From a virus, in IMG/VR virus record IMGVR_UViG_3300045988_176682: a DNA stretch of 64,000 nt, one strand, 5' to 3'. The notes beneath the pieces were generated by a model. That model saw only the letters and a list, made by a program, of their open reading frames with translations, did no database searches and was not told the DNA's origin. The stretch's first letter is position 1. Every line of letters begins with the position of its first letter. Shown here one piece after another: positions 40,503-58,378 of the stretch. The translations under genes and the position numbers were made by a program.

Positions 40503-41068
40503 AAATAGATATGGACTCCCTTAGAAAAGGGGACGTACTAAAATTTGAAAATGGAGAGGAAGCCAAGATTGAAAGCATTGCTTTCCGGATGGACGATAAG
40601 AAATATTATATCGATCTTGGGACGAAAGTTGCTTTCCGTTTCGATAGCGAGGGTAAATGCGAATTTCCGGCATATAATATTTCGGAAGCCGTTTTGGTTG
40701 AAACCGAAGATGATAAAATAACTTATTACGTCCCCAATATCTTTTGGCAGTTAACCCCGGTAGTCTCTATTACCGTGAAAGGAGCCAAGAAACCTCTCAA
40801 ACAAACGATTGTAAAGTCCATTTTTGAGTTGGATGGATTGGGTCCTTTCTATCATGGAGAGATTATAAAAGCCGAAATCCTGCCCGTAGTTTACGCTGAG
40901 CTTCGTAAATGTAAGGGAAGAGATGTCTCTATACTTAAAACAGAAAAAATCTTCTGTAAGGACGAAAAAGAGGCCGTAAAAACGGTCGAGACTTTTAAGG
41001 AAAAATATCTGGTAGCCGCAGAGGAGAAATCAAATGATGACACCGGAAGCGAAGTTAAAACAATTTGA
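40499..41068 (+). CDS. Hypothetical protein
   Basis: 189-aa ORF. Confidence 0.5.
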   Translation: MKIDMDSLRKGDVLKFENGEEAKIESIAFRMDDKKYYIDLGTKVAFRFDSEGKCEFPAYNISEAVLVETEDDKITYYVPNIFWQLTPVVSITVKGAKKPLKQTIVKSIFELDGLGPFYHGEIIKAEILPVVYAELRKCKGRDVSILKTEKIFCKDEKEAVKTVETFKEKYLVAAEEKSNDDTGSEVKTI

Positions 41069-41291
41069 GGACGTTTATGGTAAAATCGACTTTTGTAATT
41101 TGTTGCAAATACCTGATGATATAAAAAAGATTGCCAAATTGGCTGAGGAAAATAGGTTGTTTCAGGTATATGTGAGGAAAGAACATCTGATAATCACTAC
41201 CGAGTTTCAGACCAGGATAGAGGCTCTTGGATTTTTTGCCTCTTCCAAAGCATACGAAGCTCCGGAAACGATAATGATTCATTTACAGTGA
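41034..41291 (+). CDS. Hypothetical protein
   Basis: 85-aa ORF. Confidence 0.45.
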   Translation: MMTPEAKLKQFEDVYGKIDFCNLLQIPDDIKKIAKLAEENRLFQVYVRKEHLIITTEFQTRIEALGFFASSKAYEAPETIMIHLQ

Positions 41292-41300
41292 GGAGTAAAG

Positions 41301-41471
41301 AATGAAAAAATCTTTGAAGGTAAAGGAACTAAGGAAATATTTGGAAACAATGGACGAAGACGCTCAGGTTATTGTCCAGACCAGATATGGGAAAGTTTCT
41401 ATCGGATTAATCCGAGAGGGTGTCAAGGATGAAAAGAATTATGTAATTCTTGATGTAGTTTATGATAATTA
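41301..41471 (+). CDS. Hypothetical small protein (56 aa)
   Basis: ORF with RBS GAGGAG. Below the ORF-track size cutoff. Confidence 0.35.
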
Positions 41472-41740
41472 AGGAGATTAAAATGAAAGATGATATGGAA
41501 GCTATTAAAAAAACTCTTGTTGGACTTGAAGGATTGCCTCTTCTCGATTTCTGCTTTAATAATTACATTATTGCTTTTAAGTCTGGTTTTGGGGATTATC
41601 TCGTTTTATGTAATTCATTCTCTATGGAGGTATCTGAAAAAACAGCTCAGAAGATTTATAAAGTTCAAGAAGATTATTATAAAGACATGAAAGCTCAAAA
41701 CTGGGCTAAGGGTCAATTTGGAAATGCAGGAGATGATTGA
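41462..41740 (+). CDS. Hypothetical protein
   Basis: 92-aa ORF. Confidence 0.45.
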   Translation: MIIKEIKMKDDMEAIKKTLVGLEGLPLLDFCFNNYIIAFKSGFGDYLVLCNSFSMEVSEKTAQKIYKVQEDYYKDMKAQNWAKGQFGNAGDD

Positions 41741-42027
41741 TGGCTTGTTGGTATCCTAAAAGAGAAGAAAAGAATATTCTTGATTTATTGTTGAATGACA
41801 ACAGATACCGTAAGGTTCTTTTGAAAATAAAAGAAATGAAAAATCCGAGAGATTCTTATTTGAGATTTATTTCAAACAATATGGATTGGATTTATTCTGA
41901 AATGAAGAAAGAGTTTGAAAGTCATTTCTACCGGCTGTGTCTTCCTTTCGTTAAATTGATACTAAAGATAAAAACTTTGATGGAGAAAATAATTGAGAAA
42001 GTCAACAATCGAAAGAAAAATTCTTGA
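41737..42027 (+). CDS. Hypothetical protein
   Basis: 96-aa ORF. Confidence 0.45.
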   Translation: MMACWYPKREEKNILDLLLNDNRYRKVLLKIKEMKNPRDSYLRFISNNMDWIYSEMKKEFESHFYRLCLPFVKLILKIKTLMEKIIEKVNNRKKNS

Positions 42028-42397
42028 CACCCTAGCAGTCTACCGGAAGTGGCAGAAAGAAAAATTCCCTCTTCAAAAAGAACAAGGCTGGTTGTGTAAG
42101 GTAAACGAAGAATTTAAAGAATTTTATGCCGAAACCAAGAAAAGAAATAAGGACATTAACCTTATTATGGAGGAAGCTGCGGATTATTTGTTTGTTTTAC
42201 AGGGTCTCAAGGATTATTCCCCGGATTTGGCCAAACATCTGGAGAGTATTTTCTTTCTGGCTTATTCAAAGCTTCTTTTCAAGGAAGAATTTGTAACCAT
42301 CATGGAAATGAAATTTACTTATAATCAAACAAGGGATTTTAAATTTGTTCCACTTCCGGAAGGAGACGGGATTTATAAAGGAGACCACCATGGCTAA
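41993..42397 (+). CDS. Hypothetical protein, possibly MazG-like NTP pyrophosphohydrolase fold
   Basis: EEFKEFYAE...MEEAADYLFVLQGL resembles the MazG EExxD motif. Weak. Confidence 0.35.
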   Translation: MRKSTIERKILDTLAVYRKWQKEKFPLQKEQGWLCKVNEEFKEFYAETKKRNKDINLIMEEAADYLFVLQGLKDYSPDLAKHLESIFFLAYSKLLFKEEFVTIMEMKFTYNQTRDFKFVPLPEGDGIYKGDHHG

Positions 42398-43004
42398 AAT
42401 ATTTTGGTTAGATTTGGAAACCGGAGGAGTTGATAAAAAGATAAATCCGGTATTGCAAATATCCGGTCAAATAGAAATCGACGGAGAAGTGAAAGAAAGT
42501 TTTAACTATTTTGTTAAACCCTTTGACGGACAGGTAATTGACCCCGAGGCTTTGGCTGTATCCCATATTAATCCTGAGGATTTGGTAACATTTGAGGAAC
42601 CGAGACAGGTATTGAATGCCATTAAAAGGATGATGGATAATTATGTCAGCTTTTGGGATAAGACCGATAAATTTCATTTGCATGGTTATAATTCCAGATT
42701 TGATGAGGATTTCTTTCGGGAGTTCTTCAAAAATTGCTCTACAACAGAAAAAGAGTACAAATACGGAAATGGTTTCGGTTCTTATTTTTGGACACCCTCT
42801 ATTGATGTAATGCAAATTGCGGCCAGGGAATTAATGGAAAGGAGGGGAGAGCTTCTTCTCACTAACTTTAAGCTTAAAACAGTCTGCGAAGCTTTTGGTA
42901 TCGGAGAGGATTTTAACTGGCATGATGCTTCGGTAGATATTGAAGCAACCAAACAATTATATAAAGTTTTAACGGCGGGAGAAAAGAATGGGAGAAGTGA
43001 TTGA
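42390..43004 (+). CDS. DEDDh 3'-5' exonuclease (DnaQ/epsilon-like)
   Basis: Exo I FWLDLETGG, Exo II HGYNSRFDEDFF, Exo III HDASVDIEAT. Confidence 0.7.
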   Translation: MAKIFWLDLETGGVDKKINPVLQISGQIEIDGEVKESFNYFVKPFDGQVIDPEALAVSHINPEDLVTFEEPRQVLNAIKRMMDNYVSFWDKTDKFHLHGYNSRFDEDFFREFFKNCSTTEKEYKYGNGFGSYFWTPSIDVMQIAARELMERRGELLLTNFKLKTVCEAFGIGEDFNWHDASVDIEATKQLYKVLTAGEKNGRSD

Positions 43005-43182
43005 TTTTTATAAGTCTCTTGACATTATCAAAAATAAATGTAAAATGAGGACAATATCGGACATTATAAGACAAAAAGAAATTTCTGTTGAAGCTGAAAA
43101 CAAATTAAAAAACCAGTTAGTGTCTGATGCCAATAAATTTTGTTTGATGCTAGGGATATGTAATGGAAAAAATACCAATTAG
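42988..43182 (+). CDS. Hypothetical protein
   Basis: 64-aa ORF. Confidence 0.4.
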   Translation: MGEVIDFYKSLDIIKNKCKMRTISDIIRQKEISVEAENKLKNQLVSDANKFCLMLGICNGKNTN

Positions 43183-43630
43183 CTATTGGGGAATACACGA
43201 ATTAGAGGGGGTTAAATTCTATCTTGAACCAGGAACGGTAGATGATGATTTTTGCCCCTTCCATCCAGTACGAAACATAGTTGAGTGTCCCCATAGAGGA
43301 CTGTCTGAAAAGACTACCAGAAATTGGTATAAAGCGGCCTACATTCGTTCTGATACGATGAAAGCTGACAAATGTTTGGAAATGGTCCCGGAAGGATTAA
43401 TTTTAGATGATAAAACGTTTACATTTTTTCATGCAAAATTAATGCCGGGGCGGAGCTTTCTTTTGAAAGCATTAAGAATGACAAATGCACTTCCCGTTTT
43501 TATTTACGGGATAGATATGGGAACTGATATGGATAAGTTGCTGCCTTTTACACAGCTTCAATATCCAAGACCCATTTATTTTTGCGGAGACCCATATGTT
43601 CCGGTTCCTCCGTATATTAAAATAATTTAA
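43163..43630 (+). CDS. Hypothetical protein
   Basis: 155-aa ORF. Confidence 0.5.
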   Translation: MEKIPISYWGIHELEGVKFYLEPGTVDDDFCPFHPVRNIVECPHRGLSEKTTRNWYKAAYIRSDTMKADKCLEMVPEGLILDDKTFTFFHAKLMPGRSFLLKALRMTNALPVFIYGIDMGTDMDKLLPFTQLQYPRPIYFCGDPYVPVPPYIKII

Positions 43631-43644
43631 GAGGGAGAAAATCA

Positions 43645-43995
43645 ATGGATAACGTAGCTTTATTGAATACTTACATGCAGCTCAAAAGAGAAGAGCTTGC
43701 GGCCAAAGAAAAAAGACTTGAAATCGAGCAGGAATTGCTGGAACTTTATGGAGATAATGTAGCTGAGGACAGAGTATCGGCAACCATTACCGAAGGAAAT
43801 TTCCAGATTAAAATTAAAAGAAACATCAAATATACCTGTAATGAGAAAGGTTGGGAGTTTATCGAATCTCTTCCGGCTGACCTCCGTCCGGTAAAAATTG
43901 AATTAGACCAGACAAAGGCTAAGAAAATGCAATGTATGGCCCAATATCTGGAACAGCATGAAACAAAACCGACTTTCGAAGTTGTAATCAAATAA
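43645..43995 (+). CDS. Hypothetical protein
   Basis: 116-aa ORF with RBS GAGGGAGAA. Confidence 0.5.
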   Translation: MDNVALLNTYMQLKREELAAKEKRLEIEQELLELYGDNVAEDRVSATITEGNFQIKIKRNIKYTCNEKGWEFIESLPADLRPVKIELDQTKAKKMQCMAQYLEQHETKPTFEVVIK

Positions 43996-44005
43996 GGAGA
44001 TAAAG

Positions 44006-44311
44006 ATGTCTTATTCAGTAGAAGATGTAAGAGAAATAATATCTAAAATGGATATTGTTGAATCAACCGAAACACCAGGTTTATTGAAGCAAGCCAGAGA
44101 GGATATTTATATTGGTAATTTTGGTGATGATGAATTTACAAAACATTTTGTTGCCAATCTTCCAAACTTCTATCTTTATCTTAAAAAAATTGTAAATGGA
44201 AAATCGGAAGATGTTCTCGAAGATGCGAAAGAGTTTCTTAATCATTTTGAAAATATGGCTAAGGAGCAGCTTTCTACTTCGGATTTTGTAAACCTTTTGA
44301 AAAAAGAATAA
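44006..44311 (+). CDS. Hypothetical protein
   Basis: 101-aa ORF with RBS AAGGAGA. Confidence 0.5.
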   Translation: MSYSVEDVREIISKMDIVESTETPGLLKQAREDIYIGNFGDDEFTKHFVANLPNFYLYLKKIVNGKSEDVLEDAKEFLNHFENMAKEQLSTSDFVNLLKKE

Positions 44312-44333
44312 TATCAAAACAGGCGGCGGTAAA

Positions 44334-45671
44334 ATGTTAGAGAATTTTAGTTTAAGACCATATCAATCAGCCCAGTTGGGTTTTCATATTCAGCAGGTAA
44401 GAAGCCTTAATCTGTCCTCTCCAGGCACGGGAAAAACTCCCACTGCTTGTTTGTTTATCAATTATCTGGTAAGAAATGAGGGGGTTAAGGTAGCCTTTGT
44501 TATGCCTAAATCTCTTCTTAAGAAAAACTACAGTGAACTTTTTAACTTCGCTGATTTCAAAGAAGAAGAGGTCGCGATTGTGACTGGAACTCCACAAAAA
44601 AGACAGAAAATATACAAGGACCCTAATGTCAAAGTATTTTTGATGGGATTTGACATGTTTTCTAAAGAATGGGGGAAACTTCCATATGAAACTAATGGCC
44701 TGGTTGTCGATGAATTTCATATGGGATATAAGACGGATAGTTCGGCCAGAACTCAATCCTTTTATAAGTCGATGAAAGTTATTAAATGGTTTCTGGGGAT
44801 GACCGGAACTCTTATCGATGGAAGATTGGATTCAGCCTATCCGGCCATTCGGGTTATTAATCCGAATTATTATATGAGTTATAATTCTTTTAAGGCTATG
44901 CACGCTTTGTATGATTGGGATGGTCAATTAATCGGATGGATAAACCACGACCGTTTGGCTAGAATTTTGAGCAAGCATGCTGTGGCCATTAAATTCGAGG
45001 AAGCATATAAGAACTCGCCCAAGCCAATTATTATATCTCAAGAGTGTGAAATTATGAATCAGAAACAGAAAAAAGCTTATAAAGAGATGGAAGAAATGGC
45101 TTTGGTTGAGTTGGAAGACGGTTATTTGGAAGCTCACGGTTCCGGAGGTGTAAAGCAATTAAGATGCCGACAGATTTTGGAAGCTCCGGAAAGTGTACTT
45201 CCCGGTTTCAAAGGAGAGCTCGGAAAAGATGAAGCCTTAAAAGTTCATCTTGAAGATGCCAAGAATAGCGGAAAACCTCTTTTAATCTTTTCAGTATTTC
45301 GAGCTGAACAAGACCGGTTAAAGAAGCTCTGCGAGGAATATGGATTTAAAACGGAGCTGATGAATGGAGACACTTCGGATAAAAACCGAGCAAGAATTGA
45401 CAGCGAATTTAGAGAAGGAAAGATTGATATTGTAATCGGTTCTCCGGAAGTTATGTCTGTTGGCTTTAACTGGCAGCATGTTGATACGGTTATCTTTGTC
45501 AGTATGGATTATAAAGATAGTAATTTCAAACAAGCTATGCAGAGAGCCGACAGAGGAACGAGAAAATATCCTTTGAGAGTAATCCGTCTTTATTATGGCG
45601 TAGCGGTTGAACACCGTCTATGGCAAATTATCAAACGTAAACAAGAAGATGTTAAGAAAGTAGGGTGGTAA
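44334..45671 (+). CDS. SF2 helicase (SNF2/DEAD-like, phage-type)
   Basis: Motif I SPGTGKT, motif II VVDEFH, and a C-terminal helicase domain. Confidence 0.7.
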   Translation: MLENFSLRPYQSAQLGFHIQQVRSLNLSSPGTGKTPTACLFINYLVRNEGVKVAFVMPKSLLKKNYSELFNFADFKEEEVAIVTGTPQKRQKIYKDPNVKVFLMGFDMFSKEWGKLPYETNGLVVDEFHMGYKTDSSARTQSFYKSMKVIKWFLGMTGTLIDGRLDSAYPAIRVINPNYYMSYNSFKAMHALYDWDGQLIGWINHDRLARILSKHAVAIKFEEAYKNSPKPIIISQECEIMNQKQKKAYKEMEEMALVELEDGYLEAHGSGGVKQLRCRQILEAPESVLPGFKGELGKDEALKVHLEDAKNSGKPLLIFSVFRAEQDRLKKLCEEYGFKTELMNGDTSDKNRARIDSEFREGKIDIVIGSPEVMSVGFNWQHVDTVIFVSMDYKDSNFKQAMQRADRGTRKYPLRVIRLYYGVAVEHRLWQIIKRKQEDVKKVGW

Positions 45672-45672
45672 A

Positions 45673-46008
45673 ATGATTAATGCTAAAGAAGAATTAGAAA
45701 AAAAGCTAAAAGAAATTGGAAAGACAATTAAAGATATTTATTGGATTCAGATTTATACGGAAGACTGGGTAAAAAATTCTTTAAGAAAAAAATCCTTATT
45801 GGATTCTGATATTTCTCAGGAAATAGAATCTAATTGGGATAATCTAGATTTCACCTATGATAATGGTTTTGGGGGCCAGGAGCTTTATGGAACAGTTATC
45901 TTCAAAGATGAATCTTGGCTAGAGAGGGGTGAATATGATGGGTCTGAATGGTGGAACTATAAGAAATTACCTGAATATAAAAAAGGAGCTTATTTAGATG
46001 AAATTTGA
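45673..46008 (+). CDS. Hypothetical protein
   Basis: 111-aa ORF. Confidence 0.5.
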   Translation: MINAKEELEKKLKEIGKTIKDIYWIQIYTEDWVKNSLRKKSLLDSDISQEIESNWDNLDFTYDNGFGGQELYGTVIFKDESWLERGEYDGSEWWNYKKLPEYKKGAYLDEI

Positions 46009-46213
46009 AGAAGTAATGCCATATATGCGAGAAGGTAAAAAGGTTATCCGAAAATCTCTTTCACATCCTATCTTCATATCTGATTATACAAATAGCTTTG
46101 GGGAGACTTACAAGGCCTTTTGTTTTCATGGTGATAAATATATAAATTATTATGAAATTACTCAGAATGATTTATTTGCGGAAGATTGGGAAGTAATTGG
46201 TAGGGTTGATTAG
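45998..46213 (+). CDS. DUF2829-family protein (Tad2-like candidate anti-defence protein)
   Basis: MKFEEVMPYMREGKKVIRKS...DLFAEDWEVIG matches the DUF2829 N-terminal M.FxEALxxxxxGKKVxRxxW and C-terminal DWEV. Confidence 0.5.
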   Translation: MKFEEVMPYMREGKKVIRKSLSHPIFISDYTNSFGETYKAFCFHGDKYINYYEITQNDLFAEDWEVIGRVD

Positions 46214-46272
46214 TAACAAAATACAAGCTAATCAAGTAGCTGATATTAAAATACAAGAAAGAGGATGATAAG

Positions 46273-46683
46273 ATGACTTTAAAGAAAGAATGGAAGAATA
46301 AAACTCTTGATACAGATAAAATGTATTGGGTTTTATTTAAGGATTGTAAATCTCCGGAGGTTAGAAAACTAAACCAAAACTGTCAATTTATCGATAAATA
46401 TGGTTTTCCCATTAGTCCAGTAAGGATTATAGACGTTTTGGATGTTTGCGATTATGACCAGTTTGTTGAGCTTAAAGAAAAGTTAAAACAACTAGAAGAA
46501 ACCGCCGCAAAAGCAACAGAAATCGCTCAGGCTGCCAGTAAGGACAACGAACATTTGCGAGAATTGCTTAGGGAAAGTAGAGGTAGTGTATGGCTTGAAC
46601 GTGAAAACGACGGCTCCTTGGGAAATACCGTATGGGATAGATTAACTAAACTTTTAGACGAGATAGATGAGGCATTGAAATGA
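46273..46683 (+). CDS. Hypothetical coiled-coil protein (paralogue of 46867..47277)
   Basis: Shares N-terminal W-K-x-x-T-L...YW and C-terminal ...LDEIDEALK with the next-but-one gene. Confidence 0.5.
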   Translation: MTLKKEWKNKTLDTDKMYWVLFKDCKSPEVRKLNQNCQFIDKYGFPISPVRIIDVLDVCDYDQFVELKEKLKQLEETAAKATEIAQAASKDNEHLRELLRESRGSVWLERENDGSLGNTVWDRLTKLLDEIDEALK

Positions 46684-46895
46684 AAAACCTGTTACACGCT
46701 TTTGCTCCTTTAATGGCTATTACTGCCGTTTATGACGGCTTGTATGAGGGTAATTTATCACCCAAGGTAGTTGATACTCCACAAAGTGAAGAAAGTATTG
46801 CAGCGTACAAAAAAGCTGCTGAGGAAAAGAGAAAACGTAGAGCAGAAAAAAGGAAGGAAAAAAGCAATGAAAAGAGTAATGAATTTAACAGATAA
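46680..46895 (+). CDS. Hypothetical protein with basic C-terminus
   Basis: 71-aa ORF, ATGA-coupled. Confidence 0.4.
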   Translation: MKNLLHAFAPLMAITAVYDGLYEGNLSPKVVDTPQSEESIAAYKKAAEEKRKRRAEKRKEKSNEKSNEFNR

Positions 46896-47277
46896 TTGGA
46901 AACATGGAACACTCCCTCCAGGTTACTATTGGGTTAGAGATAAAGACGGAAAGGTTAGAATTAGTAGATTAACCAGATGGGTTAGTTCTCGTAACGAATT
47001 TCTCGAATTGCATTTTGAGGGAGAGGAATATATTGAAGAAGTTTTATTATCTTGTAATTATGACAAGATTGATAATATGAAAAATACCATAAGTTTTCTT
47101 GAGAGAAGAATCACAGAAGTAAAGGAGGAGAATAAACAACTCCAGCAGCTGCTAGAAAAATGTAGACCATATGTTGACAAATATTTTGAGGAACAAACCA
47201 TAGCAGAAAATTATGACAAATTAAGATGGCAAGAACCTTTGCAAATTTTAGAAGAACTTGATGAGGCGCTGAAATGA
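46867..47277 (+). CDS. Hypothetical coiled-coil protein (paralogue of 46273..46683)
   Basis: C-terminal ...ILEELDEALK. Start chosen at the internal ATG at 46867. Confidence 0.45.
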   Translation: MKRVMNLTDNWKHGTLPPGYYWVRDKDGKVRISRLTRWVSSRNEFLELHFEGEEYIEEVLLSCNYDKIDNMKNTISFLERRITEVKEENKQLQQLLEKCRPYVDKYFEEQTIAENYDKLRWQEPLQILEELDEALK

Positions 47278-47414
47278 CTTTTACTATTCCAGTTTGGGCG
47301 ATGTGGACAATCGGTTTTATTGTCGGCATCCCGGCTCTAGTTTTTATCCTGTTTTGTGCTTGGGTTGGATATGCCTTTCTAAAAGGTGTTATTGAAAATG
47401 GAGGATTTTATAAA
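47274..47414 (+). CDS. Small membrane protein (47 aa, two predicted TM segments)
   Basis: MTFTIPVWAMWTIGFIVGIPALVFILFCAWVGYAFLKG. ATGA-coupled. Confidence 0.4.
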
Positions 47415-47635
47415 TGAATGCAGAGAAAATAGAAGTCGGCGATGTGTGGAAAAATAAATATGATGGTTCTTTATGTCATATTATTTCTGTTAAAAAGGAT
47501 GAGGTTACCTATTTTTGTAAAAAAGATATGGAAATATGGATAAGTAGTATTCCTCACTTTTGGTTTTTAGGGTGGTGTAAATTAGTGGGTAAAAGCAAAG
47601 TTGGAATTGAAGATTTGTTTAAAATGGAGGAATGA
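47414..47635 (+). CDS. Small conserved protein (paralogue A of 48474..48686)
   Basis: EVGDVWKNK...KLVGKSKVGIEDLFKMEE versus EVGDVWQRK...KYLGKSKASIKDLFEVE. Confidence 0.55.
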   Translation: MNAEKIEVGDVWKNKYDGSLCHIISVKKDEVTYFCKKDMEIWISSIPHFWFLGWCKLVGKSKVGIEDLFKMEE

Positions 47636-48066
47636 TGAAATTAAAATATCTCTATAAAGGAACGACCTTAAGAAAATACTGTAAAGAACATAACCTTAAT
47701 TATGACACAGTTGTAAAAAGAATAAAAAACAAAAAGATGTCTATTGAACAAGCTATGACCACACCTAAAATGAATAAGAGTTATTTATTGTGTTCAGATG
47801 GTGTCCCTTTAATTAAGAAATGTAATACTATTTCTGAATATAGAGCTTGTCTCTGGAGAATTAAAAACTATAACAAAACAGTAGATGAAAGTTTAACCCC
47901 TATCAATAAAGGTAGAGCAAGAGCCATTCATTTTCATAATGGCAAATCCTTTCGTGAGCTGTGTGAAACATATCAACAATACAGAAGAGCTATCCAAAGA
48001 TATAGAAATGGACACTCTAAAAAAGTTTCGTTGTTTGGTAATAAATGGGATTTAATCTATGGCTAA
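47632..48066 (+). CDS. Hypothetical protein with two HTH-like repeats
   Basis: TTLRKYCKEHNLNYDTVVKRIKNKKMSIEQAM and KSFRELCETYQQYRRAIQRYRNG. Confidence 0.45.
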   Translation: MMKLKYLYKGTTLRKYCKEHNLNYDTVVKRIKNKKMSIEQAMTTPKMNKSYLLCSDGVPLIKKCNTISEYRACLWRIKNYNKTVDESLTPINKGRARAIHFHNGKSFRELCETYQQYRRAIQRYRNGHSKKVSLFGNKWDLIYG

Positions 48067-48481
48067 ATTAATAAAATCAAAACAAAGGGTTAAGGATTTC
48101 GGTGAAGTGTTTACGCCTATCTGGGTTGTAAATGAAATGCTTGACGAATTAGAAAAAGAATCAGATGCTTTTTCTGATATTGGTAAAACTTTTCTCGAGC
48201 CAACTTGTGGCACAGGCAATTTTGTTGTTGAAATATATAGACGTAAGCTAAACCGATGCAAAAATGACCGAGCAAAAGCCGAAATAGCTTTAAGAAGCCT
48301 TTGGTGTATAGAGCTCTTAGAGGACAATATGATGGAGTGTAGACAACGAGTTAAAGATATTTTCGCTTACTATGGTTGGACAGATTTGCCTTTTGATGAG
48401 GTGTTTGAAAAACAGTTCTTAATAGGGGATTCATTGAAAATTATGAAGCAATGGGAAGAAGAGGAGAAGGAGAATGACTGA
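48059..48481 (+). pseudogene. N-terminal fragment of a gamma-class N6-adenine DNA methyltransferase (motifs X and I only; no NPPY/F)
   Basis: GEVFTPIWVVNEMLD...LEPTCGTGNFVVE gives motif X and the AdoMet motif I. ORF ends after 140 aa. Confidence 0.4.
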
Positions 48482-48686
48482 AAAACGTACGCCAGAAGTT
48501 GGCGATGTGTGGCAGAGAAAATTGCTTTTTGACCGCGTACATATTGTTCAAGTAAGTAAAAACGCTGTGAGATATCAAATAGGAAAAATCAAATTCAAAA
48601 CAATTCCCAAGGATTTTTTTCTAGATGCCTATAAATATCTCGGCAAGAGCAAAGCCAGTATTAAAGATTTGTTTGAGGTGGAATGA
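48474..48686 (+). CDS. Small conserved protein (paralogue B of 47414..47635)
   Basis: See paralogue A. Confidence 0.55.
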   Translation: MTEKRTPEVGDVWQRKLLFDRVHIVQVSKNAVRYQIGKIKFKTIPKDFFLDAYKYLGKSKASIKDLFEVE

Positions 48687-49018
48687 TGAAAGATTCTGAT
48701 ATTAAAAATGACAATGGCGGAGTGTGGATAAATATTTATAAACTTCCTGATAAAGAAATATATTGGAGTGGTTCCGTTGGCCATTCAACCAAAGAAATGG
48801 CACAATACAATAATGCTGGCGAGTATTATAGGATAGCAACTTTGAATATTAAAGAAGTTCTTAATCAGCAATCCGAGATTAAAAGGCTTAGAAAGGCTCT
48901 AGACAAGATTCTAAATTACAACTCCGTAAAAGAACAGACGGATAAATATTATCATATAGTGATGGACGTAAGAGAAATAGCCCAAATGGCCTTAAACGGT
49001 GAAAGTGAGGAAAGATGA
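48683..49018 (+). CDS. Hypothetical protein
   Basis: 111-aa ORF, ATGA-coupled. Confidence 0.5.
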   Translation: MMKDSDIKNDNGGVWINIYKLPDKEIYWSGSVGHSTKEMAQYNNAGEYYRIATLNIKEVLNQQSEIKRLRKALDKILNYNSVKEQTDKYYHIVMDVREIAQMALNGESEER

Positions 49019-49230
49019 CATGGAAAGAACTTTGTGAGAAAGCACAAGAGCTTGGGTATTCTGAATGGGGTTTTTGTTTAGAGGGTAAGGCAGACCTTAT
49101 AAGATTTTATAAAAATGGTCAAATAAAAGTAAGAAATTTTGATACAGTTTTTATACAAATAGCGGAAAACCGTACGCCCGACCAGATGTATCAAATTATG
49201 TTGGCCTTAAAGAGTGAAAATGAGGAATAA
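49015..49230 (+). CDS. Hypothetical protein
   Basis: 71-aa ORF, ATGA-coupled. Confidence 0.45.
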   Translation: MTWKELCEKAQELGYSEWGFCLEGKADLIRFYKNGQIKVRNFDTVFIQIAENRTPDQMYQIMLALKSENEE

Positions 49231-49248
49231 TGACAGAGGAAATAGAAA

Positions 49249-49422
49249 ATGAAATTTGAAGAAGCTTTGAAAGCTATGCGTGAAGGTAAAACGGTTAAAC
49301 GTAAAGAATGGAGTAAGACCGAGTTTAATAGAAGAAAATATCTTTGTCTGGAAAAATACCATTGCGAAACATTGTGGACAGAGGATTTTCTAGCAGATGA
49401 TTGGGAGGTTGTAGATGAGTAA
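49249..49422 (+). CDS. DUF2829-family protein, short paralogue (Tad2-like)
   Basis: MKFEEALKAMREGKTVKRKEWSK...DFLADDWEVVDE. 57 aa, below the ORF-track cutoff. RBS GAGGAA. Confidence 0.45.
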   Translation: MKFEEALKAMREGKTVKRKEWSKTEFNRRKYLCLEKYHCETLWTEDFLADDWEVVDE

Positions 49423-49609
49423 ATTAGTTCAGATAAATATGGTTGATAACGGAAAAACATTTATTTTTAATGGCACCAAATATAAATTGGTTTCACAAAG
49501 TAAATATTGGCGTTCTTTTGTTCGAGATGATGGTACACCCGTAGAACCTAAAGATATACCCACTGAATTTCTTATAGGAAAAATTAAAGTTGAGGTTTTA
49601 GATGATTAG
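49415..49609 (+). CDS. Hypothetical protein
   Basis: 64-aa ORF. Confidence 0.4.
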   Translation: MSKLVQINMVDNGKTFIFNGTKYKLVSQSKYWRSFVRDDGTPVEPKDIPTEFLIGKIKVEVLDD

Positions 49610-49669
49610 GCGCTTGCTTTGTTGGTTACTCGGTCGTTGATGTTAAACGTATTTTTGAGGTAAAGAAAA

Positions 49670-50071
49670 ATGACAAATTATGAGACAAAATTAGTCGTCA
49701 TTATTGCCACAAACGATTTAAGTATTTTACATGAAACTGCTTTCTATGATGATTATATCGACGATGATAATCTGGAAAGTCTTTTGGACGCGTTGGATAA
49801 TGATAGTGTTATTAATTACAAGGCCGATTTTGAAGCAGAAGACCAATTAGAGGCCGTTGAATATTTGGATTGCCGGACACCTAGAGATCATTATTTTATT
49901 GCCATTGAAACACCAGTTACATATCGACCGGAGAAATGTTCAGCCGCGTGGAACTCTTGGGGCTACACTCGAACAATTTGGGTATTTGTTGCCTCTCTGG
50001 CTGAGATTGATAAATACCGCCAAATGGTTGGTAGAATGGCAGATGAAACATTAACAGAGGAGGACTTTTAA
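49670..50071 (+). CDS. Hypothetical acidic protein
   Basis: 133-aa ORF. Confidence 0.5.
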   Translation: MTNYETKLVVIIATNDLSILHETAFYDDYIDDDNLESLLDALDNDSVINYKADFEAEDQLEAVEYLDCRTPRDHYFIAIETPVTYRPEKCSAAWNSWGYTRTIWVFVASLAEIDKYRQMVGRMADETLTEEDF

Positions 50072-50280
50072 TGGATTTTTTTGAAGCGAGAATAGCTTCT
50101 TTGGAAGAAGAAGTATTAAAATATAAGGATGTCTTGGAAGATATAAGGGATGGAGTTTACCCATATAAAGACATGCTAGGGTGCTTAAATTGTAAAAGAG
50201 CCACGATAAAAGAACTTAGGGAGATGGCAAGAAAAGCTTTATTAAATAAGGAGGAACCAGATGATGATATATCATTCTAG
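50071..50280 (+). CDS. Hypothetical protein
   Basis: 69-aa ORF. Confidence 0.45.
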   Translation: MDFFEARIASLEEEVLKYKDVLEDIRDGVYPYKDMLGCLNCKRATIKELREMARKALLNKEEPDDDISF

Positions 50281-50563
50281 GGAAGAATATGAGGTGGCCA
50301 TGAGAGGCGGAGTTCAAGAAAAACGTTTTAATATGGAAGTATCAAAATATTATGAAGAAAAAATAAAAATCCTCGAAAAACAAGTAAGAACTTTAAAAAG
50401 AAATCTTAGGGAAATATCTGAGGTTGTAAAAGAACAATATGATAATATGCCTTTCCATAACAGTTTTACTTTTGAGAAAGATAGTGATTTGAACAGAATT
50501 TATTATATTGCCACTAATGGGAAAAGTTTATTTAGAAGGAGGAGTAATCAAAATGAAATTTAG
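50261..50563 (+). CDS. Hypothetical protein
   Basis: 100-aa ORF. Confidence 0.45.
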   Translation: MMIYHSREEYEVAMRGGVQEKRFNMEVSKYYEEKIKILEKQVRTLKRNLREISEVVKEQYDNMPFHNSFTFEKDSDLNRIYYIATNGKSLFRRRSNQNEI

Positions 50564-50705
50564 TAATGTGCTCTATTTTGTCTTGGGGGCCTATTTTGGT
50601 GCATTAGTTTCCATGGCTATACTTAGTGGATATTTAATAAACGACCAAATCTTTTCAGCTCCGTTTACTGATAGGGTCTATATTTGTGCCGAGGTAATAA
50701 AATGA
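50553..50705 (+). CDS. Small membrane protein
   Basis: MKFSNVLYFVLGAYFGALVSMAILSGYL TM segment. RBS GGAGGAG. Confidence 0.4.
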   Translation: MKFSNVLYFVLGAYFGALVSMAILSGYLINDQIFSAPFTDRVYICAEVIK

Positions 50706-50859
50706 AGAAAAATGAAGAACTCCTCCGGTATCTTAAAAATATAATGGAAGTTCTTGACGAGATGGAACCAAGGCCTTTTACCTTTCCGGAAGATTATTGT
50801 TACAAAATAAGGGAAAACCTTATAAAGGCAATTAACTTAATTTCTAAAGGGAAAGATAA

Positions 50860-51072
50860 ATGATTACTTATATTTTAATCGGAGGAATAATCTTTTTGTT
50901 AGATATGTTTTTTAATGAAGAGGATTATAAGAAATTATCTCCCGAAAGCAGGTATTTTCTAACACATAATATAACGTACTTTTTGGTTACTTTCTTGATT
51001 ATCTCTCTTATATGGCCTCTGATTATACTTCATTGGTTAGTACAGTTAAAAGGAAAGATTAATCATGAATAA
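50860..51072 (+). CDS. Small membrane protein (2 TM; holin-like size/topology)
   Basis: 70 aa. TM1 ILIGGIIFLLDMFF and TM2 FLVTFLIISLIWPLIILHWLV. Confidence 0.4.
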   Translation: MITYILIGGIIFLLDMFFNEEDYKKLSPESRYFLTHNITYFLVTFLIISLIWPLIILHWLVQLKGKINHE

Positions 51073-52651: not shown

Positions 52652-53449
52652 ATGGTTTTAATTTATGATGTTAATAACTGGATAAGAGTTAAACTGTCAA
52701 CCGACGGAGACCAGTTAACCATTAACAATTTCTGGTCTGAGGTTTTATACAACTCTTCTAAAGGAGAGGTTCAAATTTTTGTCTCTGATGGTTTTAATTC
52801 GAGAAAAAAGAGAAAAGAAATCTATCCAGAGTATAAAGCAAAAAGAAAGCCTGCCGATGCCTCTATTTATGATGGTATCAATTTCTTTAAGAACCTTTTG
52901 CGTCATGCTCCAAAAAATGTTTTTTATGTAGAAGTCCCGGAAATGGAAGCAGATGATATTATAGCTCATCTGGTAAGATACCGAAATAATTACTACATTG
53001 GAAAAGATATTCATATTATTTCAACCGATAAAGATTTAACCCAGCTTTTAGTTTATCCCGGAGTAACTACTCTGGCTACTCCTCCGGTAGAACCTAGATT
53101 TGTTAGGCTTTATAAAACTTTAGTTGGGGATAATTCAGACAATATTCCGGGAGTGCCGGGAATAGGGAAGTCTTCTTGGGAGAATATCCCGGAAGAAGTA
53201 AAAAAAGAACTTAATATGATGTTGGCCTCCGGCGGGATGTTGACCGAACATTTGGCAGATGAATTAGAAAAATGTTTCAAGCCAAAGCAACTGGAAAATT
53301 TTTATGAAGCTTATTATAATGGTAGTCTGCACATGTTCTTTAAGATTGTAGATTTTATAGATTATCCATTTAATCCGTCAATATTGAAGACAGGAGACGG
53401 AGACTTAAACTTTGTTAACAAGCAACTGAATGAGTTATTTATATTATGA
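52652..53449 (+). CDS. 5'-3' exonuclease / flap endonuclease (FEN, Pol I N-terminal-like)
   Basis: YPEYKAKRK motif, acidic clusters and H3TH GVPGIGKSSWENI. Start at the internal ATG with RBS AGGAG. Confidence 0.7.
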   Translation: MVLIYDVNNWIRVKLSTDGDQLTINNFWSEVLYNSSKGEVQIFVSDGFNSRKKRKEIYPEYKAKRKPADASIYDGINFFKNLLRHAPKNVFYVEVPEMEADDIIAHLVRYRNNYYIGKDIHIISTDKDLTQLLVYPGVTTLATPPVEPRFVRLYKTLVGDNSDNIPGVPGIGKSSWENIPEEVKKELNMMLASGGMLTEHLADELEKCFKPKQLENFYEAYYNGSLHMFFKIVDFIDYPFNPSILKTGDGDLNFVNKQLNELFIL

Positions 53450-55074
53450 GAAACAATGCTTGGCTTAGTTCTGGAGGAGATGAAGCGAGTGATGAAGTAA
53501 TCACTCCCAGATACGTTGTGGAACCTATTGTCAAATATCTTAAGGCTAAAAATTTTAAGGTTGTTTGGTGTCCGTTTGATACGGTAGTGTCCCAATATGT
53601 TCGCGTTCTTTATAAGGAAGGGTTTGATGTCAGGTTTGGACACCGAGACATAGGGCTTGACTTTTTCAAATATGAATGTCCGGAAGCAGATGTCATTGTT
53701 TCAAATCCGCCGTTCAGTTGTTATAGCGATGATACAGAGGTATTTACTAAAAGAGGATGGATTAGATTTCCGAATATATTACCAACTGATGAGATTTTAT
53801 CCGTAAACAATAAAAAAGAAATTAGTTGGGATAAAATTTCGAGAGTTATAAAAAAAGAGGTTAATGAGGATTTATATCATTTTAAAAATAAAAACATGGA
53901 TTTATTAGTTACCTCTGACCACAGGATGTTTGCCTACAATAAATATTCTAATGAGTTATGTATTGGTAAAGATGGGGATTTATTAAGAGCTTCCGAAATT
54001 GGAAGTAAACACTATTTTCCTAAAAATGGATATACTTGGAAAGGAGAGATTAACAACGATTATTTAGTTCTCCCACATACAAAAAATCCCCCTAGGAGTA
54101 AAGTTAGCTTTTATCCTGAACTAAAGATACCTCTAATTGATTGGCTTCCTTTTTTCGGATTATGGTTGGCTGATGGATTCGTTTCTACATATAAAGGAAC
54201 CGGACATGAATATACTGTGGGGATAAAACAAGGAGAATCTAGATGGAGAGAGGTAGAGAATATCTTAAATAAGTTACCTTTTAAATATTCTAAATATATA
54301 AATAAAATATACCCCAGCGATAGGGAAAGAAAAGCTGACTATGCTATATATCAAAAACAATTATGGGATTATATGAACCAATTTGGTAAATCTCAAAATA
54401 AATTTATTCCTTCTTGGATAAAAAATCTTCCTGTGAGGTATTTAAAGCTTCTTATTTATGGCTATACTTTAGGAGATAGTTTTAGACATAAAGGAATAAA
54501 TTCAATAACTACTTCTATTCATTATGGGTCAGTTTCTAAACAGTTGCTAGAAGATATTCAAGAGATATTATTAAAATTAGGAAATATAACTAATATTTCT
54601 CACCAGATTTTAAATAATGGTAATGATTATTATCGCTTAATCTTGAATAAAGATAGTTGCAGTAACAGAGCTATGTATATACGTAAAAATCCTCAAAATA
54701 AGGAACCCTATAATGGGTTAGTATATTGTTTAACTCTAAAAGAGAATAGTATTTTTTTAGTGAGAAGAAACAATAAAATAATATTTTGCGGTAATTGTAA
54801 AGACCAAGTATTGGAAAGACTTTATAAATTAGATAAACCCTTTATGGTTTTATTTCCTGTTCAAGTATTACAGGGAAAGAAAAGAACCAAGTTGTTTATG
54901 AAATATGGGTTGGAGTATCTTGGATTTGATTCCCGTCCTTGTTTTTATACCAAAAATGACTTATCGTCTATAAAAACGGGAAATCATTTTGCCAGCGGAT
55001 ATTATTGCCGGAATGTTCTTCCGGAGAAATTAATTTTTGAAGAATTAAAATTAATACAGGAGCCTTTTATATGA
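53446..55074 (+). CDS. Small phage Dam-like N6-adenine methyltransferase interrupted by an intein (extein about 186 aa)
   Basis: N-extein ...ITPRYVVEPIV...ADVIVSNPPFS. C-extein CKDQVLERLY...FMVLFPVQ.... The intein lies between them. Confidence 0.55.
   Translation: MRNNAWLSSGGDEASDEVITPRYVVEPIVKYLKAKNFKVVWCPFDTVVSQYVRVLYKEGFDVRFGHRDIGLDFFKYECPEADVIVSNPPFSCYSDDTEVFTKRGWIRFPNILPTDEILSVNNKKEISWDKISRVIKKEVNEDLYHFKNKNMDLLVTSDHRMFAYNKYSNELCIGKDGDLLRASEIGSKHYFPKNGYTWKGEINNDYLVLPHTKNPPRSKVSFYPELKIPLIDWLPFFGLWLADGFVSTYKGTGHEYTVGIKQGESRWREVENILNKLPFKYSKYINKIYPSDRERKADYAIYQKQLWDYMNQFGKSQNKFIPSWIKNLPVRYLKLLIYGYTLGDSFRHKGINSITTSIHYGSVSKQLLEDIQEILLKLGNITNISHQILNNGNDYYRLILNKDSCSNRAMYIRKNPQNKEPYNGLVYCLTLKENSIFLVRRNNKIIFCGNCKDQVLERLYKLDKPFMVLFPVQVLQGKKRTKLFMKYGLEYLGFDSRPCFYTKNDLSSIKTGNHFASGYYCRNVLPEKLIFEELKLIQEPFI
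53719..54795 (+). mobile_element. Intein (359 aa) with LAGLIDADG homing endonuclease domain
   Basis: Block A CYSDDTEVFTKRGW. Block B TSDH. LAGLIDADG motifs GLWLADGF and LIYGYTLGDSF. Blocks F/G VYCLTLKENSIFLV...IIFCGN followed by +1 Cys. Confidence 0.75.
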
Positions 55075-55702: not shown

Positions 55703-58378
55703 ATGCAGCAACCACAACCAGTACCGTCTTTATTAGTCGATGCCAGAAATTATCATACGATATTCCCGGCTTTAATTGAGAAAATAAAAAACGCTCCCTA
55801 TTGCGGGATTGATATTGAAACTCATAATGGAAAGGCCCACGATGGCATTAAACTTTACAATAAGCAGAAGGGTAAAAATGCGTTTGATATACGGCGCACT
55901 GTTATCACTGGAATTTCTTTTTACCCCAAAGGAGATACTTGTGCTTACTATGTTAATCTTAATCAGCTTGATAAAGATAACAGACTTCCTATTGAAGCCG
56001 TAAAACAACTTCTTGTATCTAAGTTATGGATTATTCATAATGCTAAGTTCGAATTAACGATGTTGATGGCCGTTTATGGTATTGACCTCTCCTCTTATAT
56101 TTGCACTTATCAATTAGCGGTTTCAGCATTTGGGCCGGACAATTACGATATTGGAAAATTCTGTGCCACTCCTTTGGGAGAAATCGGGAAACTTTTACCG
56201 GAAATTTCCCGAACCTTTGAAAATTATGATATTAATAAACAACCCACACCGGCGCAGGCAGAATTGATAGGAAAAGTTTGTGGAAAATCCTCGGATGCCG
56301 CTCACTCTTACAATGGCTGGGTAAAAGAGATTGCCTATGGTTATGGTTTGAAAAAGCTTGTTAAAAGCCTGTTTAATTATGATATGGAACACTATGATGA
56401 ATGTTTAATGTCCTCAAACTATGCCAAACAGCGTGATTTTATTATGAAGAGTAAAGACCCCCAAATCAAAACTCTTCAACCATACTTTGAGGAAGAACCA
56501 CACATGGGCCATTTAACTGGAGAAGAAGTTGTTTCTTATGGTGCCGATGACAGCTATTGGTGTGTTCAAGTTTATGAGTGGTTACTTGAGTTTATTTTAG
56601 CTAACTCCCCGGAAGTTATTCCTACATTCCTTAATCAGGAAAATCCTATGGCTAAAATCTTCTCTAAGATTACTCTCGGGGGATTGAGAATTAATGAGGA
56701 AAACGTATATAAAAAGAGGGACGAGGAACGGGTTAATCTTGCCCATACTCTGAGAGATATAAAAAAGCATATAAGGGAGCTTCTTCCATTCAAATGTAAT
56801 GAATATCCTGAAACTTTGATGAAGTCAGAAACCTGGTACAGTAAAGACCCTGAAAAATACCGGCAGAAGATTAGAGAATTTGCTTATTCTCCGGACTTTG
56901 ATGATTCTCCGGAAGGGATAAAAAACCAAATTTATCAAGTGAACGGAGGAGCGGCTAATTCTTATGGGGAAGATAACAAGACTGGCATAATTAACTTGTC
57001 CCATTATATGCCGCAAAGGGTTCTTTTTTATGACCTGATGGGTTTTAAGGGTATTAGGAGTAAAGGAAAGTTACAGTCGGATAAGAATGCCAGAGGTAAA
57101 ATGATTGAAGAGTGTGAGAAAGATTCTCCTCAACATCTTATCTTAGAATGCTTAAATAAGATTTCTCAGGTTGACCAAGTTTGTAAACTTTACCTTAACC
57201 CTTACTTACTCTTGATTGACCCCGAGACCAAAAGAGTTTATCCAGACATCGGCTCCGACCTCGCTACCCGTCGTATGTCAATGTCTAACCCGAACGGTCA
57301 ACAGCTGGCCAAAGGCGGAGACTCTTCTTATATTCGAGGATTCTATCTTCCTGACAGAGATGACCATGTTATTATGTCATCCGACTGGTCAAATATGGAG
57401 TTGGTAATCCCGGCAGAACTTTCTGGAGACCCGGAGTTCTTAAAATGCTTCGGACAGATACCTTATGAAGACTTACATGCCATTGCCGCGGCAGCGATGT
57501 TAGAGCTTACTGATGAAGAGTTTGCCTCATTAAAGGACCTTCCGGAAGATGTTGATAACATCCGAGGAATCCATTTTAAGAACGAGAGAGGTGAAACATT
57601 GAAACCGAAAGATTTCTGGAAATGGGCAAGAAAGAACCTCGGGAAAGGTGCTAACTTCTCCTACGCTTTCTCCGGAGCCCTGTCTAATCTTCAAGAAAAA
57701 CTGGGTTGGAGTGATGAATATCATTGGGCCAAGGTAGAAGCTTACCGGAACCGTTTTAACGTGTTTGAGGAATGGAGACTGGGTATCATTGCTGATGCCA
57801 AAGCCCAAGGCTTTGTCCAACTCCCTGACGGTCATAAAAGATACCGGTTTGAGGCTACTCAGATGTGGAGGCAGATAATGACAGATAAGTTTTTAGCAAC
57901 CTATGATTCACCCGGCGTTAGAAATTTCTTACAAAAATTCCTGAAATTAACGCAAACTAGGGCAAATAACCAGGCGGTTAACGCTTTGGTGCAAGGTACC
58001 GCAGCGGCGCTGACCAAGAGAAGTATGATAAGGTTATCAGAAGAGATTACTAAACGGGGATGGGATGACGGAAGAGTTAGAATTATGATGCCTATCCATG
58101 ATGAAATTGTGGCTTCTGTACATAAAGATCTTGTTCTTGAATATCGTAAATTGATTAGACAGGTTATGTGTGAACAACCGTGGCTTTTCCACAAGGTTAT
58201 TCTTAACTGTTCAGTCAGTATGGGAAGAACTTTCGAACCCTTTAATCTTGAGAAAGCTCCTCTCGGTCAAATTGAGTTGGACGAGGCTCCTCATGTTGAC
58301 TTTATCGACCAGAAGTTTTGGGGTAAATCAATGGATGATGAAGCTGTCAAAAGATGCCTTGACTATCTTTTTGAATAA
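55703..58378 (+). CDS. polA: DNA polymerase I (family A) with 3'-5' exonuclease domain
   Basis: Exo I YCGIDIETHN. Motif A DWSNMELVIPAE. Motif B RKNLGKGANFSYAFSG. Motif C IHDEIVAS. Confidence 0.85.
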   Translation: MQQPQPVPSLLVDARNYHTIFPALIEKIKNAPYCGIDIETHNGKAHDGIKLYNKQKGKNAFDIRRTVITGISFYPKGDTCAYYVNLNQLDKDNRLPIEAVKQLLVSKLWIIHNAKFELTMLMAVYGIDLSSYICTYQLAVSAFGPDNYDIGKFCATPLGEIGKLLPEISRTFENYDINKQPTPAQAELIGKVCGKSSDAAHSYNGWVKEIAYGYGLKKLVKSLFNYDMEHYDECLMSSNYAKQRDFIMKSKDPQIKTLQPYFEEEPHMGHLTGEEVVSYGADDSYWCVQVYEWLLEFILANSPEVIPTFLNQENPMAKIFSKITLGGLRINEENVYKKRDEERVNLAHTLRDIKKHIRELLPFKCNEYPETLMKSETWYSKDPEKYRQKIREFAYSPDFDDSPEGIKNQIYQVNGGAANSYGEDNKTGIINLSHYMPQRVLFYDLMGFKGIRSKGKLQSDKNARGKMIEECEKDSPQHLILECLNKISQVDQVCKLYLNPYLLLIDPETKRVYPDIGSDLATRRMSMSNPNGQQLAKGGDSSYIRGFYLPDRDDHVIMSSDWSNMELVIPAELSGDPEFLKCFGQIPYEDLHAIAAAAMLELTDEEFASLKDLPEDVDNIRGIHFKNERGETLKPKDFWKWARKNLGKGANFSYAFSGALSNLQEKLGWSDEYHWAKVEAYRNRFNVFEEWRLGIIADAKAQGFVQLPDGHKRYRFEATQMWRQIMTDKFLATYDSPGVRNFLQKFLKLTQTRANNQAVNALVQGTAAALTKRSMIRLSEEITKRGWDDGRVRIMMPIHDEIVASVHKDLVLEYRKLIRQVMCEQPWLFHKVILNCSVSMGRTFEPFNLEKAPLGQIELDEAPHVDFIDQKFWGKSMDDEAVKRCLDYLFE

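Follow-up and report, generated by a model that had tools for sequence, protein, structure and literature searches.

Two minimal Tad2-family (DUF2829) proteins encoded among the small accessory genes of a novel siphovirus

Tad2 homologues, which have been assayed in PMC12393519, were shown to sequester 3'cADPR, as well as His-ADPR and N7-cADPR (ADPR, ADP-ribose; cADPR, cyclic ADPR), along with cGG/cGAMP and cUMP/cCMP. Furthermore, a 2026 paper reports that AcrIIA7, a DUF2829 protein, binds the trans-activating CRISPR RNA (tracrRNA) in a basic groove of the tetramer core; in an earlier study, the anti-CRISPR activity of AcrIIA7 was not reproduced. Thus, membership in this family alone does not specify the target. 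Here, we analyze two short open reading frames (ORFs), ORF-A and ORF-B (Table 1), in a 64,000-nucleotide stretch of viral DNA, IMG/VR record IMGVR_UViG_3300045988_176682 (hereafter, the window). An earlier note on this DNA, made from the sequence alone, assigned both ORFs to DUF2829 and interpreted them as counters to Thoeris signalling; the family call is correct, and the functional inference was over-extended. ORF-A and ORF-B are real and presumably expressed accessory genes encoding minimal Tad2/DUF2829 members, and we consider the chances about even that the two proteins act, in oligomeric form, as sponges for immune signals derived from nucleotides, the ligands being left unspecified.

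Tad2 of phage SPO1 (gp34.65, 89 amino acids; PDB 8SME, 8SMF, 8SMG and 8WJE) forms a tetramer that is a dimer of V-shaped dimers. Each V-shaped dimer is held through helix alpha2 and strand beta2, and it is along helix alpha1 that one dimer interlocks with the other, with the ligand pocket located between non-dimeric protomers. In this pocket, 1''-3' glycocyclic ADP-ribose (gcADPR) is held chiefly by W25 and W73 of two protomers, with polar contacts to N26 and D79; the adenine contacts T78, I63 and T65, and D67, H71 and S76 hold water molecules. The equivalents of these contacts in HgmTad2 are W21/N22, W87 and S90/T92/D93, and in the mutants W21A/N22A and S90A/T92A/D93A, both gcADPR binding and inhibition are markedly reduced. 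The GWNG loop is present in all four solved Tad2 types.

Both ORFs match the Pfam profile PF11195 ("Tad2-like", formerly DUF2829) over all of its 73 positions, ORF-A with 42.1 bits (E = 1.3e-10) and ORF-B with 35.3 bits (E = 1.8e-8) against a gathering threshold of 25 bits, so that the membership of both in the family is solid. The two genes are present at the positions reported in the earlier note, and the translations agree: ORF-A starts with MKFEEVMPYMREGKKVIRK and ends with AEDWEVIGRVD, whereas ORF-B starts with MKFEEALKAMREGKTVKRKEW and ends with ADDWEVVDE. The two proteins share 37% identity (BLASTP E = 2e-9). Single-sequence phmmer searches against the PDB yielded marginal matches only (ORF-B with MoTad2, 8v3e/9eib, E = 0.0014), and a family profile was needed to reach the solved structures. 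The profile of the ORF-A and ORF-B homologues does so, with E values of 2e-8 for MoTad2, 2e-5 for SPO1 Tad2, 7e-4 for SptTad2 and 1e-3 for HgmTad2/AcrIIA7. The MKFEE and DWEV termini, which had been taken as the hallmark of the family, indeed belong to its best-conserved parts, the N-terminal MxFxEAL..M.EGK.V.R and the C-terminal AEDWEV motifs, in which F3 and the tryptophan are invariant among 115 sequences; they are, however, elements of the fold and of the assembly, not ligand contacts.

A hidden Markov model (HMM) of the 115 homologues, compared with all 991 six-frame ORFs of the window, recovered ORF-A (E = 6e-29), ORF-B (E = 4e-22) and no other ORF, which excludes a chance resemblance. 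Each of the two is preceded by a Shine-Dalgarno-like sequence 9 nucleotides upstream of the ATG (AAGGAG for ORF-A, GAGG for ORF-B) and lies close against its neighbours on the same strand, ORF-A starting with an 11-nucleotide overlap with the preceding gene and ORF-B being overlapped by the following gene, and the same genes are called in related contigs. The possibility that these are chance or non-coding ORFs is ruled out by the HMM E values, the ribosome-binding sites and the conservation across thousands of homologues.

The fold was predicted with AlphaFold2 as monomer models. The ORF-A model, built with the 115-sequence alignment, has a predicted local distance difference test score (pLDDT) of 95.3, with helices at residues 3-11 and 56-60 and strands at 14-17, 25-31, 37-44, 49-51 and 65-69, that is, an alpha1-beta1-beta2-beta3-beta4-alpha3-beta5 topology that contains every pocket-forming secondary-structure element named in the SPO1 structure paper. 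In Foldseek searches of the PDB, the 14 best matches of this model were all Tad2 (probability 1.00, query-normalized TM-score 0.67-0.73), and the next match had E = 0.66; among viral models (BFVD), the neighbours are annotated as "Thoeris anti-defense 2-like", some of them with 71-76 amino acids. Structure prediction and Foldseek thus confirm the Tad2 core fold for ORF-A. For ORF-B, the pLDDT is 74.9, with residues 25-35 below 50, and the model is confident only in alpha1, beta1, alpha3 and the last strand. All 22 PDB matches of ORF-B belong to the Tad2 family, with non-significant E values (0.15-7), and the fold match in this case is suggestive only.

Compared to SPO1 Tad2, with which they show ~20-23% identity in the structural alignment, the window proteins share the Pfam family, the core topology of helix alpha1, an antiparallel sheet, helix alpha3 and a last strand (confidently predicted for ORF-A, suggestive for ORF-B), the N-terminal helix, the C-terminal AEDW(D/E)(I/V)V motif and the location among small accessory phage genes. 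They differ in being 18 (ORF-A) and 32 (ORF-B) residues shorter; indeed, at 71 and 57 amino acids, they are shorter than every characterized Tad2 (88-104 amino acids). The missing part is the alpha2 insertion (SPO1 Tad2 residues 36-59), which in ORF-A is replaced by a 5-residue hairpin (residues 32-36), and in ORF-B is likewise absent, with the region even shorter than in ORF-A. Among the solved structures, the best sequence-profile match is MoTad2 (also ModTad2) from a Myroides odoratus prophage (88 amino acids; PDB 8V3E and 9EIB), which binds His-ADPR and cUMP and shows the same W...W-T...D-I-L-A-E-D-W arrangement as ORF-B. MoTad2, however, has the GWNG loop, an additional pocket where Tad2A and Tad2C meet and the full insertion that the window proteins lack. 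The actual clade of the two ORFs consists of short, uncharacterized phage proteins annotated as "Thoeris anti-defense 2-like domain-containing", such as BFVD A0A6J5RW94 (72 amino acids), A0A516M5P9 (71 amino acids) and a protein of Bacillus phage vB_BcoS-136 (75 amino acids), which are of the same size class and fold (TM-score 0.67-0.75) at ~20% identity.

HgmTad2/AcrIIA7 (104 amino acids; PDB 8KBI-8KBM) and pdAcrIIA7 (158 amino acids; 9KZR) share the DUF2829 core with the window proteins, and the profile match of HgmTad2/AcrIIA7 is weak and located at the N-terminal helix. This relationship raises the alternative that ORF-A and ORF-B bind structured nucleic acid in the manner of AcrIIA7 (9kzr, 8kbi), which reportedly sequesters tracrRNA and in this way blocks the assembly of the Cas9 ribonucleoprotein, the binding of tracrRNA and stem-loops being reported to involve conserved lysines and arginines of the core. 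Both ORFs retain the conserved N-terminal cluster of lysines and arginines (GKKV.RK), to which ORF-B adds a basic loop, KRKEWSKTEFNRRK. Neither the 35-41-residue insertion that binds cyclic dinucleotides in HgmTad2 and pdAcrIIA7 nor the 48-residue head domain of pdAcrIIA7 is present in the window proteins. They are acidic overall (isoelectric points of 5.3 for ORF-A and 5.4 for ORF-B), and the extended domain that belongs to the AcrIIA7 architecture is missing from them. Given, in addition, the conflicting reports on the activity of AcrIIA7 itself and a likely Gram-negative host of unassigned CRISPR type, which offers no support, we regard nucleic-acid binding as very unlikely.

The W-N(-G) motif in the beta1-beta2 loop of the gcADPR binders is missing in both ORFs: W25-N26-G27 of SPO1 Tad2 corresponds to L21-S22-H23 in ORF-A and to W21-S22-K23 in ORF-B, where the tryptophan is kept and the asparagine is lost. 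W73 corresponds to Y52 in ORF-A and W43 in ORF-B. In the C-terminal motif, S76, T78 and D79 correspond to T55, N57 and D58 of ORF-A (Y52...T55-Q-N57-D58, a conservative change in which the aspartate is retained), whereas ORF-B has a 3-residue deletion that takes the S76 region, followed by E45-D46 (W43-T-E-D46). Thus, D79 is kept in both ORFs, and ORF-B, in which W21, W43 and D46 align with W25, W73 and D79, retains both stacking tryptophans together with the aspartate; judging from these residues, ORF-B is the likelier candidate of the two for an ADPR-derived (Thoeris-type) ligand. A homologue 85% identical to ORF-B (P0017) carries W-N. In the sub-clade of ORF-A, the motif Y-(Y/H)-x-x-x-(H/Q)-N-D-(I/L)-F is conserved at the alpha3 site, which hints at a site that is maintained but chemically altered, and ORF-A probably has a different ligand.

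The proposal that both proteins are canonical anti-Thoeris Tad2 sponges that bind gcADPR (3'cADPR), as made in the earlier note, is consistent with the family membership and the fold, with the retained tryptophans and aspartate of ORF-B, and with the report of Li et al. that the gcADPR site is highly conserved across Tad2 homologues. We nonetheless consider it unlikely: ORF-A has L-S-H and a tyrosine in place of W-N-G and W73, ORF-B has lost N26 and S76-T78, binding is markedly reduced in the two HgmTad2 mutants, alpha2 is absent from both proteins, and the site is not conserved in the short clade. With the supposed hallmark motifs belonging to the fold and the assembly, the gcADPR contacts only partly present, the alpha2 insertion that serves one of the two oligomer interfaces lacking, the ligands of the family diverse and about a quarter of the tested sponge homologues inhibiting nothing that was assayed, the step from family membership to Thoeris-signal sequestration is not supported in the form in which it was stated.

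The clade to which ORF-A and ORF-B belong is large. A search with the profile of their homologues recovered 2157 clusters (50% identity) at E <= 1e-3, and the proteins in the best 150 of these are mostly 57-75 amino acids long. Metagenomic homologues of ORF-A comprise 70-76 amino acids and are 45-65% identical to it, whereas those of ORF-B include near-identical copies followed by relatives of 61-68 amino acids at ~45% identity; the two ORFs fall in different sub-clades. In a set of 120 short homologues, AEDWEV and the N-terminal helix hardly vary, and the best-conserved pocket residue is that at the D79 position (D in 74 of the 120). Judging from these alignments, conservation of the gcADPR pocket is the exception among the DUF2829 proteins of 57-75 amino acids. 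The short-clade homologues are always encoded within arrays of small phage ORFs. A pattern scan found genomic relatives mostly in Bacilli, at 25-40% identity, which is uninformative on the host of this phage. Of the 58 relatives longer than 90 amino acids (in the P0023-P0168 set), 38 consist of short DUF2829 domains, two or three of them, fused in tandem, with lengths of, for instance, 118-141 amino acids; these suggest covalently linked pseudo-dimers of the mini-domain, which implies that the short domain works as an oligomer.

If both proteins are indeed oligomeric sponges, they would self-associate via helix alpha1, as the characterized Tad2 proteins do, and loop beta1-beta2, strand beta4 and helix alpha3 would form an inter-protomer pocket. 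This pocket would sequester a small nucleotide-derived immune signal and, in doing so, blunt a signalling defence of the Thoeris type, of the cyclic-oligonucleotide-based antiphage signalling system (CBASS) type or of the pyrimidine cyclase system for antiphage resistance (Pycsar) type. Without the alpha2 insertion, the proteins may assemble into a dimer that forms the pocket and not into the canonical dimer of dimers. ORF-A, which keeps the clade-conserved Y-x-x-x-H/Q-N-D at the alpha3 site, would probably accommodate a different ligand. Several observations weigh against the sponge interpretation. Both proteins lack helix alpha2, which contributes to the interface of the V-shaped dimer, and the model of ORF-B is poor in its centre. 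ORF-A has neither W25 nor N26, the equivalents of which are replaced in the HgmTad2 double mutant that binds much less gcADPR; in ORF-B, N26 is replaced by serine, and three residues of the beta4-alpha3 loop, S76 among them, are lost. In the short homologues in general, the W25 position is occupied by tryptophan in only 41 of 120 sequences and the N26 position by asparagine in 13 of 120, whereas only ~1% of the canonical Tad2 proteins are predicted to be non-functional at this site. We know of no tested member of the 57-75-amino-acid clade. Finally, in published assays of sponge homologues from three families, 19 of the 84 tested, about a quarter, inhibited none of seven systems.

The latter proportion also bears on the possibility that ORF-A and ORF-B are decayed or neofunctionalized remnants with a Tad2 fold and no sponge activity. 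They might then act as a small adaptor or as a regulator, or simply be carried along, without function, in an island of high turnover. This would apply to ORF-B in particular, which is the shortest protein in its family neighbourhood and the central strands of which are not confidently predicted; the lack of pocket conservation in the short clade points in the same direction, and both ORFs weakly match PHROG 643, which is labelled "transcriptional regulator". Against this possibility stand the thousands of short homologues that have intact ORFs and strongly conserved terminal motifs, the good ribosome-binding sites of both genes, and the persistence of the ORF-B cassette, 96.7% identical, in a contig that is unrelated in all other respects (see below), and we judge it improbable. 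A more specific variant of sponge activity is that the 57-75-amino-acid proteins are a functionally distinct "mini-Tad2" class that assembles without the alpha2 interface, as pocket-forming dimers or, possibly, A/B hetero-oligomers in phages with two copies, and sequesters signals other than 3'cADPR, potentially from an uncharacterized defence. Such a class would account for the lack of conservation of the canonical W-N-G pocket among the short proteins; as a full proposal, we consider it decidedly unlikely.

Sponges of the Tad2 family have repeatedly provided molecular handles for the discovery of bacterial immune signals, such as His-ADPR and N7-cADPR. ORF-A and ORF-B themselves are ordinary family members, but they represent a very large minimal clade (over 2000 clusters at 50% identity) in which the insertion is absent and the canonical gcADPR contacts are, for the most part, missing; if active, its proteins would be the smallest signal sponges known and might indicate other ligands. 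What annotation can take from this is that a PF11195 match should not be equated with "anti-Thoeris" by default.

The two genes differ in their genomic setting and were probably acquired independently. A 74-kb metagenomic contig (L002) is 97% identical to and collinear with positions 41002-46862 of the window, ORF-A included (99% amino acid identity), and is again 94% identical over 49658-50794; the interval in between, a hypervariable accessory island, is replaced in L002 by mostly different genes. Among these is a different PF11195 gene (L002 7624..7884, 86 amino acids, E = 1.7e-8), and thus this sister phage likewise carries two DUF2829 genes. In the 86-amino-acid protein, the DUF2829 core ends with NDWVDL and is followed by a C-terminal extension of ~27 residues, a third family architecture in this lineage. 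A further contig of 35.6 kb (L003), which carries an integrase and a KilA-N gene, is unrelated to the window except for positions 1802-2189, which match 49240-49625 at 96.7%. This segment covers exactly ORF-B and the 64-amino-acid ORF that follows it, with unrelated flanks, and the two genes, to judge from this match, travel as one cassette. Thus, ORF-A is a stable gene of the phage lineage, and ORF-B is part of a small mobile cassette in an island with high gene turnover. The 64-amino-acid ORF has no Pfam or PHROG match. A general two-gene module consisting of a DUF2829 gene and this partner was rejected: the 64-amino-acid gene downstream of the L002 DUF2829 gene encodes an unrelated membrane protein.

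The divergence of the two copies had been read as a sign of counter-defence pressure. In a weaker form, this remains plausible given the location of ORF-B in the hypervariable island and the presence of another DUF2829 gene in L002. A recent in-situ duplication is ruled out by the 37% identity, the different sub-clades and the sharing of the ORF-B cassette with an unrelated contig, and multiple copies of DUF2829 are not rare, canonical Tad2 homologues being found in 453 places in 428 phage records, with three in phage SpaA1. A comparison of synonymous and non-synonymous changes in near-identical copies was uninformative, there being too few differences.

Table 1. Coordinates of the two Tad2-family ORFs, the variable island and other features of the window
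Feature	Coordinates	Strand	Length	Description	Sequence
ORF-A	45998..46213	+	71 aa	minimal Tad2-family (PF11195) protein	MKFEEVMPYMREGKKVIRKSLSHPIFISDYTNSFGETYKAFCFHGDKYINYYEITQNDLFAEDWEVIGRVD
ORF-B	49249..49422	+	57 aa	Tad2-family protein, still more reduced than ORF-A	MKFEEALKAMREGKTVKRKEWSKTEFNRRKYLCLEKYHCETLWTEDFLADDWEVVDE
Hypervariable accessory island	46862..49658	+	2.8 kb	contains ORF-B; conserved flanks, ORF-A on the left	
64-aa ORF	49415..49609	+	64 aa	8-nt overlap with ORF-B; GGGAGG 6 nt upstream; translationally coupled	
ResIII helicase	44334..45671	+			
Coiled-coil pair, first	46273..46683	+	136 aa from ATG		
Coiled-coil pair, second	46867..47277	+	136 aa from ATG		
EVGDVW pair, first	47414..47635	+	73 aa		
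HNH-like ORF	47632..48066	+	144 aa	within the variable island	
Methyltransferase-like ORF	48059..48481	+	140 aa		
EVGDVW pair, second	48474..48686	+	70 aa		
Direct repeat, two copies	48987-49020; 49202-49235		34 nt		
Intein-containing gene	53446..55074	+	542 aa	LAGLIDADG_3 and intein-splicing domain matches	
DNA polymerase A	55703..58378	+			

The window derives from a tailed phage with ~38% GC and no tRNAs. A megablast search with positions 44000-51000 detected no nucleotide-level relatives among ~50,000 phage records, and tblastn with ORF-A or ORF-B against the cultured-phage collection returned nothing at E <= 1e-3; the phage is a novel siphovirus. Its structural genes are located on the minus strand, and the terminase, the major capsid protein and a GpJ-like tip protein are 33-48% identical at the amino acid level to those of Proteobacteria siphoviruses of ~80 kb, namely, Achromobacter JWF, Caulobacter Seuss, Xylophilus Lumi and Pseudoalteromonas KB12-38. 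This resemblance, together with an endolysin that is a small M15 peptidase, suggests a Gram-negative host. The plus-strand half encodes a PrimPol/D5 helicase, exonucleases, the ResIII helicase, an intein-containing gene and DNA polymerase A, interspersed with ~50 small ORFs, nearly all of which are orphans. ORF-A and ORF-B both belong to the stretch of small ORFs, encoded on their own strand, that separates the helicase gene from the DNA polymerase gene, and no other known anti-defence family was found among 49 neighbouring ORFs in Pfam and PHROG searches. The intein-containing gene is located in the replication region, just upstream of the polymerase gene.

Several other genes in and near the island deserve mention. 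The coiled-coil pair are paralogues (30% identity, E = 3e-7) with a coiled-coil middle part and a C-terminal L(D/E)E(I/L)DEALK motif. The EVGDVW pair, likewise paralogous (44% identity, E = 3e-15), share the motifs EVGDVW and LGKSK..I.DLF and have no family matches; the 3' ends of these two ORFs (~47588-47638 and 48630-48689) have counterparts in short segments of L002 and of L003, in the manner of module junctions that recur. The methyltransferase-like ORF resembles only the N-terminal S-adenosylmethionine (SAM)-binding part of N6-adenine DNA methyltransferases, with a PTCGTGNF motif, a match to phrog_21201 (E = 5e-17), Pfam N6_Mtase/MmeI_Mtase matches below threshold and no evident catalytic motif; the protein is possibly a methyltransferase that has been truncated, or else one that binds SAM on its own. 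The HNH-like ORF, which shows a weak helix-turn-helix resemblance and a similarity to an "HNH endonuclease" PHROG (phrog_3377, E = 1e-5), may be a remnant of a mobile gene of the homing-endonuclease type. Finally, just upstream of ORF-B, two copies of a direct repeat that are 85% identical (TGGCCTTAAA.GGTGAAA.TGAGGAA..ATGACA) bridge, at two successive gene junctions, the stop codon and the start of the gene that follows, and might represent a recombination scar or a linker at cassette boundaries.

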